Assembly (NCBI GenBank): GCA_000934665.2
Contig: JYFJ02000538.1
Span: 1 to 64,000 of the forward strand
Reading direction: 5' to 3'
DNA: 64,000 nucleotides
Origin: Catajapyx aquilonaris
Taxonomy: Eukaryota
This document shows positions 42,678 to 47,000 of this stretch, one piece after another. The position numbers were made by a program, and so were the translations under genes. The notes under the pieces are model-generated. The model worked only from the letters and a program-made list of their open reading frames with translations. It did not search any database and had not been told where the DNA came from. Numbering within the stretch: the stretch's first letter is position 1; every line of letters starts with the position of its first letter.

Positions 42678-43889
42678 TCATCCCCGACAATCAGCCAGTG
42701 CCTGACATTTATTTGCCCATTGTTGGAGAGAAATGGGCAGAGAATCTATCACACGCTTTTGCTTGAACACAGCCCATAGTGAAATGTCAGCCAACGATGG
42801 CTGCTTGCCTTCAGTCAGCCATCCCCACCTCCCAATAGACTTTTCTGCTTCTTTGGCTGCAGTCTTCCACCATCCACTTCTGATTCTTGATTGCTCCGCT
42901 ATGTCCAACCAATAGTCTACTTGTGCAGCGCTTTCTGGCCCCTTGCATTCATACTTCAGCAACTCAGGGAATTTTCTGGATCCACCCAGGCAGCTGGATT
43001 CACACAATCGGACCAGGAATCGCACCAAGACAGACTCACCCTTTAGCGTAAGTCTCTGAGGGTGTACTACAACCTGCAATAATGTAATTACCTTGGGTCA
43101 ATATTATACTTGTATTAAGGCTGGCTTACCTAAGAAAAACAGAGCTTTGTTGGAATTGACCTGAGTAACCTCCAAATAGTTTATGACTTCTGGTTCTTGC
43201 TCATAAATGAACAGCAATTGTCATAGTTTTTCTAAAGTTGTCCTGTTCAACAGTGTGGCACATTATTATCAGTATTATGAACACACAAAAATTGGGAACA
43301 ATTGGTTTAGATAATACTGAGGGTATGCTCAAAATCATTCTAGCAAATTTTCACGGAAGGTAAAATCAGGTATTAGCCAACGTAAAAGTAAATGTGACAA
43401 TTTCTATGAAGACTCTTACGCGTACTAGATTTTCTTCGCACTTGCTTGACCGAAATAAAAACACTATAATCACTGTACCATATACTAAAATTATAAAAAT
43501 TATAACAGCAAACCTGTGGTTCAAGCCCAACTCGTTTCCAGATGAGCCTAATTCTGACTTTCATTGGCCCATTAGTGGTGCTGGGAATGTCCAGGAAGTG
43601 TTCCAACTTTTCAGGGAGCTCCTTGATAGATGAGTGCATATGTGTATATGCAACTATGGGGTAGACTTGTGCTATTTTACGAGCAAGGACCTGCAAGACG
43701 TACGGAGGGTGATGTGGATCTGCAAACACAGTAAAATCAGAGGGCAGGTCTGCCCTCGCGCAACCCTCAGCAGAGAGTAATTGGTGTCGTAAAGCGGAGA
43801 CTTGTTCAGCCAATGCCTTAGCTCGCTCAAACACTGAATCCCAATTCTCTTGTAGGGAAGATAATAAAGCTGCAGTGTTGTCCCCATGC
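42678..43889 (-). CDS. AIMP2: Aminoacyl-tRNA synthetase complex-interacting multifunctional protein 2 (two exons; no own start exon found)
   Basis: DFTVFADPHHPP, THMHSS..LPEKL, LIWK, LKGESVLVRFL, VDYWLDIA, WL..PSLADISLW GST-like motifs; exons 43889-43514 and 43073-42678. Confidence 0.87.
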
Positions 43890-44088
43890 CTGAAACAAAT
43901 TCATTGTAGTCAAGAACAGGAGTGAACAAAAAGTAGAAGCAGGATAACAAATCACAAGTGCTTTAATTTTGAAACAAAAAATTACAACCATGCAAATAAT
44001 GTGCAAAATTGTGTAACAGAAAATACTGCCACATGCAACTAAGATAACAAAGGATCAAGAGAAATGTCATTGAAAACACTGAAGGCAG

Positions 44089-47000
44089 TTACTTTTCCAG
44101 ACGGCATATTGAATTGTCATGAACCATCTGCAGGTTGACTCTTGGTCCCACAAGGTCACGTATGTTGTCAATTCCGTACTTGATCATAGTAGGCCTGAAA
44201 ATTAATTCCAGTTTAATTTTTACAGTAAAAAAGCAAACACACCTCATTCATATTTAGTTATGTAGTAATATTCATCAATATTTAAATATTCCTAAAAATT
44301 ACTTGAATACAGCCAGTCCCGTAGCTCCGAAATACATAGATTTGAACTTACACAAAAAAATTCAGATGTTCACCAAAATCTATGGATCAAACTGATAACG
44401 TAAAAAGCCTGATTAGCGAGAAACACATTAAGTTGTCATCTTGGCATTAGAACACCTTTCCCACTAATGTCCTAACATACTTTAGTAAAAAGAAATAGCA
44501 AGAACTCACCTCTCCAATGACAGTCCCCATGCAATTACTGACACATCTTCAGGTAAACCCATGGGAAGCAACATCTCAGGTCTGAACAGCCCCGAGTTCC
44601 CAATCTCAACCCATTTCTTTAATCCAGGATGAAAACTGAAGATCTCCATGCTGGGTTCTGTGTACGGATTGTATGCAGGCTTGAACTTGAGCTGGGTTAT
44701 TCCCAGCTTGCTGAAGAACTCGTACAGTGTCCCAACTAGATGTCCCAATGTGAGACCATGGTCTGCCACCACTCCCTCAATCTGGCAGAACTCAGCCAGA
44801 TGGGTGGCATCCAAAGTCTCATTGCGAAACACTCTGTCGATGCTGAAGTACTTAGCTGGTTGGAATTCTGGTTGTTGGGCCAGCTTGTAGAGCATTCTGG
44901 CTGAGACTGCAGTGGTATGGGTTCGAAGGACATTCTTGCGAGCTTCTTCAATGTCCCAGGAGTAACCGTAGCCTTGGGACCCAAACCCGCCCTTGCTGTG
45001 CACATGAGCAACTTTTTCAACATAGTCCTCTGGGCCAACTTTGGCCATTCTGGGTTCTGGAGGGAAAAAACAAATGGTTCCTTATGAGAATAAAAACATT
45101 GAATTGCACATCGTACTATGGGATTACTTCAGCACAGGTTGAGAAAATCCTTTTGCAGTCTGCCCACAAAACATTTTTTGAAAAGAATATTCATGATTTA
45201 AAGAGTTTGATAAAATGCACTTAAAAACATCAGCACCTAAATTGAAATCATTACTCACTAACCTGATCAGACAAAAATAACAGAAAGTGGTAACATCTAG
45301 CCCCATCCCAGGGTAAACCTAAATTAATATGCCAACAATGAAGAAAAGTAACTAACGAAGATATTCACATCACGCCTACAGTATATTTGCATTTTTATTG
45401 ATTGCCCCATATAATTCAGACAGTAGAATCAAAACATAAGCAAGCACTAGCTAAATCATGTCAACACCCACGAGACTGAAGAAGTACGAGTATGATAGAG
45501 GAGGGGTCATAATTACAGTCTGAATAATTTTTTGCTAAACCAACATATTAAAAATAAATACTCCATGCAAAAAAACTTTTACCAGTTATGAAGAAAGTGT
45601 CATGAGCATCACGAGCTGGATGCTGCTGAGGTTGAAACAAAGCATCAAAGTTCCAGAAGCAGCTCTCAATGTAGTTGTTTGTTGGCATCTCAGTAAATCT
45701 GTCAAGCAATAAATGCATATAAAACCGTGGTAAAACCTTACTTTCTTTACACAGCATACTAACCCCATCTCCAAGAAAATCTGCCTAAATTCAGCACGCA
45801 CTTTAAGAAGTGGATGCAAATGGCCACGAGTTAAGGTTGTTCCCAAGGCATCAAAATTATATGGTTTAAATTCTAGTGTCTTCCAGCTCCCACTGGCAAT
45901 CATATCTCCAGTTAAATCAGTCTCCAGGCGATTGACAGATGTGGAGAATTCTTTCCCACGATGCACAGAAAAGGTCTTCACAGTGCTAGAATAAATAATT
46001 AAAACATCACTTTAAATGGCCTAGAACAATGATTAGCAACTACTAGGGAGACGGAGTGGCGCCGCAGTAACGCGTGCGCCCACGGAAGTTAAGGTCCCGG
46101 GTTCAATCCCCACCCGGGGTTCCCACCTTCTTTCGTGCAGAGTTGGGCCATCTCTGGCTTAGTTTCGGGTGGCGATTTCCGATAGACTAAGCCACCCGGG
46201 GGAGTTCACAAAATGACCAATTAACGACAGCGCACATGCACTTTGCACATCCCCTCCTAACTACCTTGGAGTATACTAATAAGATTATTCTTAACTCGCT
46301 CCAAAAAAACAAATACCAATGGTGGTAATCCACCACCCCCTATAGACCTAAACAGGTCATCACGGGGTAAATGAGAAAATTAGCAACTACTAACATGAAA
46401 CTATCACCAGCAGTGAAAGCAACTGAAAACTTTCTCCTACTGAACAGAGCAATCTTGTCAATGCATTCCCTAGCTTTTCTGGATCTTTGCTAATGGATAC
46501 TAACATCTCAAGCATCAGTTTCCTCTTCTTGTATTCTTGTCTATCTGCTTCCGGGAGCTTATCACCAGTACCTTTCAATACTAGTTGAAGATGCTGCTGC
46601 ACTTTATCTGCGATTGAATCCACCTTCCGAAATACCACTGGGGCACCTTTACTCTTGTCTATGCTGATCCATCCAGCAGACATGGCCTTGTTGAAGCCCA
46701 CCTTAGCATTGGGAACAGTTTTCTGCAAATAATTAAAAATACAACTCAATGCAAAGGAAGTTCAGACAGAATTCCTGAAAGCAACAACCACATTGAGGAG
46801 AGATTACCATGAGTTCTGCTTGCAATTTTCCTTCAGGAGGAATTGCTCCAAACAACACAGCCTCATGGCTTCCTTTTTCCGCCACCTGCTTTCCTTCTGC
46901 CGTTAGCTCCCACAGCAGGTTGCTCTTCTGCTCCACATCCACCACCTGCAGTTTTAATTTGTAATTAATGTCAACATATTATGAACCAACAACAAAATCA

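Follow-up and report, generated by a model that had tools for sequence, protein, structure and literature searches.

In a 64,000-nt stretch of the Catajapyx aquilonaris genome (assembly GCA_000934665.2, contig JYFJ02000538.1, positions 1-64,000 of the forward strand; hereafter the window), the coding region for the alpha subunit of phenylalanyl-tRNA synthetase (PheRS-alpha; gene FARSA) is followed by that for AIMP2, both on the minus strand. Our analysis indicates that the two very probably constitute one nine-exon gene encoding a PheRS-alpha::AIMP2 fusion protein of 750 amino acids (aa). Both parts are transcribed together, and the intervening 203 nt are spliced out like any other GT-AG intron. 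A preliminary description of this DNA, made from the sequence alone, had proposed that a splice donor lying in the FARSA stop codon is spliced in frame to AIMP2; the exact joint in an RNA-type contig and the same junction in other animals both bear this out.

The junction is formed by intron 7 (43890..44092, minus strand). When read unspliced, exon 7 ends in ...ICRLEK, followed by TAA at 44091-44089. The donor GTAACT (44092-44087) follows AA, which makes the intron phase 2, and its first four letters comprise the G of the lysine codon plus TAA. On the other side, at the acceptor tttcag|G, AIMP2 exon sequence starts with the G at 43889. The lysine survives the junction of 44093 with 43889 (AA+G), as either the G of the intron or that of the first AIMP2 exon can complete the codon. 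The AIMP2 frame is shut by a stop just upstream of the acceptor, its open reading frame (ORF) begins at 43900, and the first in-frame methionine of the AIMP2 part is residue 84. On re-reading the sequence, every coordinate previously given for the acceptor, the upstream stop, the donor, the intron length and the phase holds. The same applies to the remarks that no in-frame ATG occurs until deep in the domain and that an ATTAAA lies within the interval, the latter being found at 43967-43962, 125 nt into the intron.

The stop itself needs no special explanation, because any phase-2 GTAA or GTGA donor automatically gives an in-frame TAA or TGA when left unspliced; the exon-6 donor (AG|GTGAGT) likewise yields an in-frame TGA. 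Judged by the alignments, the informative feature is not the stop as such but its position, since orthologous FARSAs end at exactly this residue: unfused animal FARSA proteins terminate where exon 7 does (e.g., P0033 in ...CRLDK and P0068 in ...CRLQK).

Evidence of splicing was obtained from one public sequencing run containing the locus, using its Logan contigs, which were compared with the window over 40000-52000. The run was treated as RNA-derived because none of the introns of FARSA or of the genes next to it is retained in its contigs. A single contig of 1,575 nt (depth 23.7) spans AIMP2 to its end and FARSA back to exon 4, and in its listed pieces it agrees with the window letter for letter (42667-43070, 43511-43888, 44092-44193, 44509-45056, 45583-45698 and 45764-45790). 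It carries the predicted joint (43888 to 44092, skipping 203 nt, cut +1, CT..AC on the plus strand) along with the joints of introns 4, 5, 6 and 8. The two sides of the intron-7 joint share 1 letter, not a 31-mer; the joint is therefore no k-mer overlap artefact and must have stood in the reads. Because the contig holds exactly the joint that was predicted, the phase-2 match is more than chance, and the splice joint 44093|43889 links the FARSA and AIMP2 coding regions in one RNA. The preliminary description had pointed to two junctions that could reveal the fusion: that from 44093 to 43889 is the one present in this contig, while the alternative, from FARSA exon 6 to 43889, is absent among the listed contig joints, none of which enters 43889 except from 44093. 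Depth in the bins 43609-44009 (16.5) and 44010-44410 (6.03) is fully explained by the exon bases of the fusion contig. No contig of the run covers 43890-44091, so neither unspliced intron 7 nor a plain FARSA mRNA terminating at the ATTAAA was seen, although contigs drop rare forms and cannot prove that such forms are absent.

Splicing yields a frame that stays open for 2,253 nt, corresponding to 494 aa of PheRS-alpha and 256 aa of AIMP2 (about 84.5 kDa), and each of the eight introns has GT-AG borders. Reading along the minus strand, FARSA exon 1 (47589..47726) begins at ATG 47726, the first in-frame ATG past an upstream stop, and its donor joint (46942 to 47586, cut +3) is present in a second contig, of depth 10.1, which holds FARSA exons 1-4 and overlaps the fusion contig within exon 4 only. 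Exon 2 (46808..46945) is delimited by contig joints with verified GT-AG borders, exon 3 (46505..46722) by the joints 46722 to 46808 and 45985 to 46505, and exon 4 (45764..45985) by contig joints as well, the fusion contig beginning within it at 45790. Both joints of exon 5 (45583..45698), namely 45698 to 45764 and 45056 to 45583, are found in the contig of depth 23.7. Exon 6 (44510..45056), matching Pfam PF01409, encodes the class II catalytic core and forms a piece of the fusion contig, which also contains both joints flanking exon 7 (44093..44194), the last 34 codons of FARSA. Downstream of intron 7, AIMP2 exon A (43514..43889) is separated by intron 8 (43074..43513; 440 nt, GT-AG; joint 43070 to 43511, cut +3, in the fusion contig) from AIMP2 exon B (42678..43073), which ends in the stop TGA at 42680-42678 and is covered by the fusion contig to 42667. 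An AATAAA at 42659..42664 on the same strand probably serves the fused mRNA as poly(A) signal: the fusion contig stops at 42667, and depth is 0 in the bin 42005-42405.

The FARSA half is, by these comparisons, a complete, full-length eukaryotic cytosolic PheRS alpha subunit with an intact class II core. Exon 6 matches PF01409 (class II core, F) with an E-value of 1.6e-53. Its relatives were taken as the best 120 of 7,370 passing matches; among these 120, identity to animal FARSA is 78-85%, bar one outlier of 48% (P0002). Residues 1-494 align end to end with FARSAs of 495-497 aa at 67-71% identity, and among 303 proteins no FARSA is more than 71% identical to that of the window over its full length. 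In a FARSA tree built by a quick method from 30 rows picked from these 303 proteins (274 left out), the row of the window belongs to an unresolved polytomy that no starred set encloses. The rows bearing fusions are not gathered in a single clade, with deep branches left open, and the row of the window stands beside none of them.

The downstream half is recognizable as AIMP2 over both exons. Exon A, which comprises a zipper-like heptad stretch followed by the thioredoxin-like half of a GST-like domain, matches the AIMP2 domain Thioredoxin_16 (PF18569) with an E-value of 9e-15 (55.1 bits, cut-off 26.5). Its best PDB match is to human AIMP2 chains (E 1.3e-4, residues 50-120). For exon B, which would supply the C-terminal helical half of the GST-like domain, the best PDB match is again human AIMP2 (E 9.2e-6), over residues 112-197 in 6IY6 and 137-222 in 5A34. 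Exons A and B thus match human AIMP2 in colinear order. The Pfam match of exon B to GST_C_2 is weak and under the cut-off (E 0.018); taken with the PDB matches, exon B is assigned as the putative GST-C-like helical half of AIMP2. Over the initial 45 residues of the AIMP2 part, one heptad register has hydrophobic residues at 11 of the 13 a/d positions, a register count only. In p38 (AIMP2), a zipper precedes the GST-like domain (PMC4394549), and the predicted heptad stretch fits such a zipper. In human AIMP2, an N-terminal peptide binds lysyl-tRNA synthetase (LysRS; PMC4394549). This LysRS-binding N-terminus has no counterpart in the fused AIMP2, where FARSA occupies that place. Neither a word-indexed search of exon A among longer proteins, in which none passed, nor the ESM Atlas, whose look-alikes of exon A belong to unrelated families (best score 0.83), added relatives.

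A first exon of its own for AIMP2 was also sought. Upstream on the minus strand, 55 ATG mini-ORFs with a phase-2 GT donor occur by chance, and none of them is backed by a contig joint or a motif. In line with the earlier statement that no AIMP2-like first exon lies nearby, no N-terminal motif of the AIMP2 type (LP.CMY) was present in the six frames of the 64-kb window.

The same arrangement was found in other animals. Of the 120 listed FARSA relatives, three contain PF01409 and PF18569 together, and an AIMP2-tail profile run among proteins of at least 423 aa returned three proteins, all three being fusions with both domains. The preliminary description had suggested looking for the arrangement in related genomes. 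Fusion gene models are present in six named arthropod species: the gall wasp Belonocnema kinseyi (XP_033214158.1, a RefSeq model of 691 aa), the wasps Trichogramma pretiosum (XP_014236329.1, 689 aa) and Trichogramma kaykai (KAL7289373.1, 690 aa), the porcelain crabs Petrolisthes cinctipes (KAK3869963.1, 768 aa) and Petrolisthes manimaculis (KAK4317809.1, 810 aa), and the stick insect Timema californicum (CAD7572131.1, 546 aa, partial). They are annotated merely as 'phenylalanine--tRNA ligase alpha subunit' or 'hypothetical protein', and further fusions occur among marine transcriptome and metagenome proteins.

An exhaustive HMMER search was carried out with four whole fusion proteins as query, and tails were judged by a local AIMP2-tail profile. 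Mixed alignments of window exon fragments and whole fusions were dropped, as MAFFT scattered the fragments and hmmbuild kept 419 positions including FARSA columns. Five of the best 150 representatives have an AIMP2 tail: P0131 (Trichogramma), P0133 (Petrolisthes), P0144 (Timema), and P0146 and P0215, both marine or metagenomic. In P0159, also among the best 150, the tail begins as AIMP2 and then diverges (broken). In all fusions the tail starts directly after the last FARSA residue, ...C(R/T)(L/I)(D/E)(K/T). The AIMP2 part of the window is closest to the Timema tail (29% identity over 250 aa, E 5.6e-27), followed by those of the wasps and the crab, and a motif ..(R/N)(W/F)D..(I/V)....L is common to the window, Timema and marine tails. 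The tails are highly divergent but frame and junction are kept, which argues for a long-lived functional fusion instead of a sporadic chimera. The in-frame junction in RNA and its recurrence in other lineages are what point to a fixed gene fusion. Two long-tailed FARSA models, of Cordylochernes scorpioides (P0132, 694 aa) and Trichinella papuae (P0134, 763 aa), were rejected as such fusions, their tails being unrelated to AIMP2. By eye the C. scorpioides tail is transposase-like, and both models are probably model errors, or other fusions.

Several observations weigh against the reading of the locus as a single fusion gene. Some models from related insects lack the fusion (Trichogramma brassicae, 492 aa; Cephus isoform X2, 490 aa; Melipona, 490 aa), and alpha-PheRS (CG2263) and AIMP2 (CG12304) of Drosophila are separate genes (PMC4826098). 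The contig evidence comes from a single run whose kind is unrecorded, and contigs show presence, not proportions or transcript ends. A contig spanning two genes is no proof of one transcript, and FARSA exons 1-3 are on a separate contig. The fusion protein is predicted from DNA and contigs. A second, free-standing AIMP2 gene may exist elsewhere in the genome, the scope here being the 64-kb window, and the donor GTAACT together with the intronic ATTAAA suggests that a plain FARSA mRNA may be made as well.

This last point can be developed into a regulated locus with two products in meaningful amounts, where use of the donor gives the fusion and cleavage at ATTAAA gives plain PheRS-alpha ending in ...CRLEK. 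We regard such a switch, which the preliminary description had proposed, as possible though somewhat unlikely; it would be compatible with the fusion gene. The donor AA|GTAACT deviates from consensus in lacking a G at +5, the ATTAAA lies within the intron, and without splicing the protein would stop at the very residue that terminates orthologous FARSAs. Furthermore, the T. brassicae model halts exactly at the junction that its sibling T. pretiosum crosses, although the former may be mere annotation made without RNA evidence. As noted above, phase-2 donors of the GTAA or GTGA type, that of exon 6 included, bring a stop with them automatically, without any need for selection; nor is any of 43890-44091 covered by a contig, with the reservation on rare variants already made.

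It is quite improbable that the locus instead consists of two distinct genes that now and then yield a read-through chimera, with most AIMP2 made either from a promoter of its own through a first exon that went unrecognised, or from another gene copy. Read-through chimeras are common in animals (PMC5053695, PMC11128028), and the 55 chance mini-ORFs offer such an exon formal candidates. This explanation is nevertheless disfavoured because the AIMP2 frame is closed by the upstream stop and lacks a methionine before residue 84, because no other listed joint enters 43889, and because the fusion is conserved; the AIMP2-type N-terminal motif is likewise missing from the window. The fusion has been kept in at least three arthropod orders and in marine lineages with tails that are 21-33% identical, pointing to long-term selection on the fused frame. 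Still far less credible is an operon-like pair whose downstream member receives a spliced leader in trans at the 43889 acceptor. The 203-nt gap and the strong acceptor ahead of a downstream coding region do resemble operons of trans-splicing animals, but the contig shows cis-splicing from 44093, and no loose end at 43889 is among the contig ends listed (20 others are unlisted). Moreover, past the acceptor the first ATG (gcATGggg) is out of frame with AIMP2, whose own frame contains no methionine for 83 codons.

Under the favoured reading, a single fusion gene, the donor overlaps the ancestral FARSA stop position and the intron is removed, so that all 494 aa of the alpha subunit are followed in frame by AIMP2. 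In read-through chimeras the first exon of the downstream gene is skipped. The fusion could have originated in a comparable way, when the last exon of FARSA came to be spliced to exon 2 of a downstream AIMP2 gene; the coincidence of the fusion junction with the end of unfused FARSAs fits splicing from the old stop to AIMP2 exon 2. PheRS is an (alpha-beta)2 enzyme, so fused PheRS would carry two AIMP2 modules. In mammals the AIMP2 zipper is the partner of p43/AIMP1. Two such modules, each with a putative zipper and a GST-like domain, could dock PheRS covalently onto the multi-synthetase complex, a tethering that the preliminary description had also envisaged; there it would sit in the position taken in mammals by the LysRS-binding arm. 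A broader reading can be put forward tentatively, with rather less than an even chance of being correct as a whole. In this organism and a wide, patchy pancrustacean set, AIMP2 would exist solely as the C-terminal module of PheRS-alpha, and PheRS would be a covalent core subunit of a re-wired complex, at the position that the LysRS arm has in mammals and flies. LysRS would then be lost from the complex or held otherwise, and many unfused arthropod FARSA models would be artefacts ending at an intronic TAA or TGA.

With nine synthetases and three auxiliary proteins, the animal complex is usually portrayed as alike in flies and mammals, AIMP2 being its free central scaffold, and PheRS does not belong to the nine in the complexes described for mammals and Drosophila (PMC4394549). 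In this 2015 review of synthetase complexes in evolution, 'PheRS' appears nowhere and the arthropod complex is given as the same as the mammalian one (PMC4394549). Compared with canonical FARSA, such as Drosophila CG2263, the window product is colinear and adds a C-terminal extension of 256 aa. It resembles AIMP2/p38/JTV-1 (human 5A34 and 6IY6; Drosophila CG12304) in having a thioredoxin-like and a GST-C-like domain after a putative heptad coiled coil, and differs in that the region of about 45 residues by which human AIMP2 binds LysRS (PMC4394549) is replaced by a 494-aa synthetase subunit, leaving no free N-terminus. The arthropod fusion models share with the window a full FARSA followed by the AIMP2 module (zipper-like, Thioredoxin_16 and GST-C-like) without the AIMP2 N-terminus. 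Their AIMP2 parts, however, are only 26-33% identical to that of the window, and in the wasps the zipper region of the tail is much shorter.

A complex partner built into a synthetase polypeptide is also found in glutamyl-prolyl-tRNA synthetase and in nematode methionyl-tRNA synthetase with its C-terminal p43/AIMP1-like domain (PMC4394549). Those cases involve another synthetase and another auxiliary, whereas the window fuses the central scaffold to a synthetase otherwise outside the complex. As in read-through (conjoined) genes, the last exon of an upstream gene is joined to the second exon of a downstream one, skipping stop, intergenic DNA and first exon. Unlike in those genes, the fused form is the only one assembled here and has been conserved in distant lineages, which is how a fixed fusion behaves. 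No description of a PheRS-AIMP2 fusion was found in titles and abstracts of the open-licence PMC and bioRxiv literature. As far as searched, the fusion is thus public as unremarked gene models and undescribed.

A conserved PheRS-alpha::AIMP2 predicts a different composition of the complex in part of the arthropods and in this organism. It raises the questions whether PheRS is channelled with the other members, what becomes of LysRS without its docking peptide, and why the scaffold tolerates a 56-kDa enzyme subunit in place of its N-terminus. The locus is also an annotation trap: a predictor blind to RNA would end FARSA at the donor stop and leave AIMP2 an orphan without a start, which suggests that gene predictors lacking RNA evidence will miss the fusion.

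Further features were noted around the fusion gene. FARSA intron 3 contains a 177-nt element (46041-46217), a second copy of which, 95% alike, lies at 21922-22098. The bin with the first copy reaches a depth of 1,564 in the run, against 1-60 elsewhere, with many loose ends, and the element is probably an abundant, transcribed repeat resembling short interspersed nuclear elements. ARAGORN (tRNA scan) and Rfam returned nothing over the window, this element included. Just downstream of AIMP2, on the minus strand, low-depth spliced contigs cover 40804-41705 with a joint from 41475 to 41567 (CT..AC, 91-nt intron); the ORFs there have no Pfam match. Between FARSA and a dehydrogenase gene, an ORF with a C2H2-like pattern on the plus strand (48024-48965) has a GT..AG joint from 48843 to 48965 at depth 2.2 and no Pfam match at E 1e-5. 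The dehydrogenase gene (50805-52700, plus strand) encodes a glutaryl/acyl-CoA dehydrogenase with Acyl-CoA_dh N, M and C domains. Lying approximately 3 kb upstream of the FARSA start and pointing away from it, this gene shows alternative 5' joints in contigs (50805 to 50908, 50805 to 51069 and 50941 to 51067).

Farther away, ankyrin-repeat ORFs followed by Mab-21 nucleotidyltransferase and Mab-21 C-terminal domains at 28232-31467 (plus strand) may represent a cGAS-like receptor with ankyrin repeats. The remaining genes identified in the window encode MCM10 (3317-6384, minus strand), a Rab GDP-dissociation inhibitor (11022-12096, minus strand), an immunoglobulin/fibronectin-III protein (16723-21891, minus strand), a DUF3522 protein (53389-54281, minus strand) and the end of a ubiquitin-activating E1 (63448-63999, minus strand).

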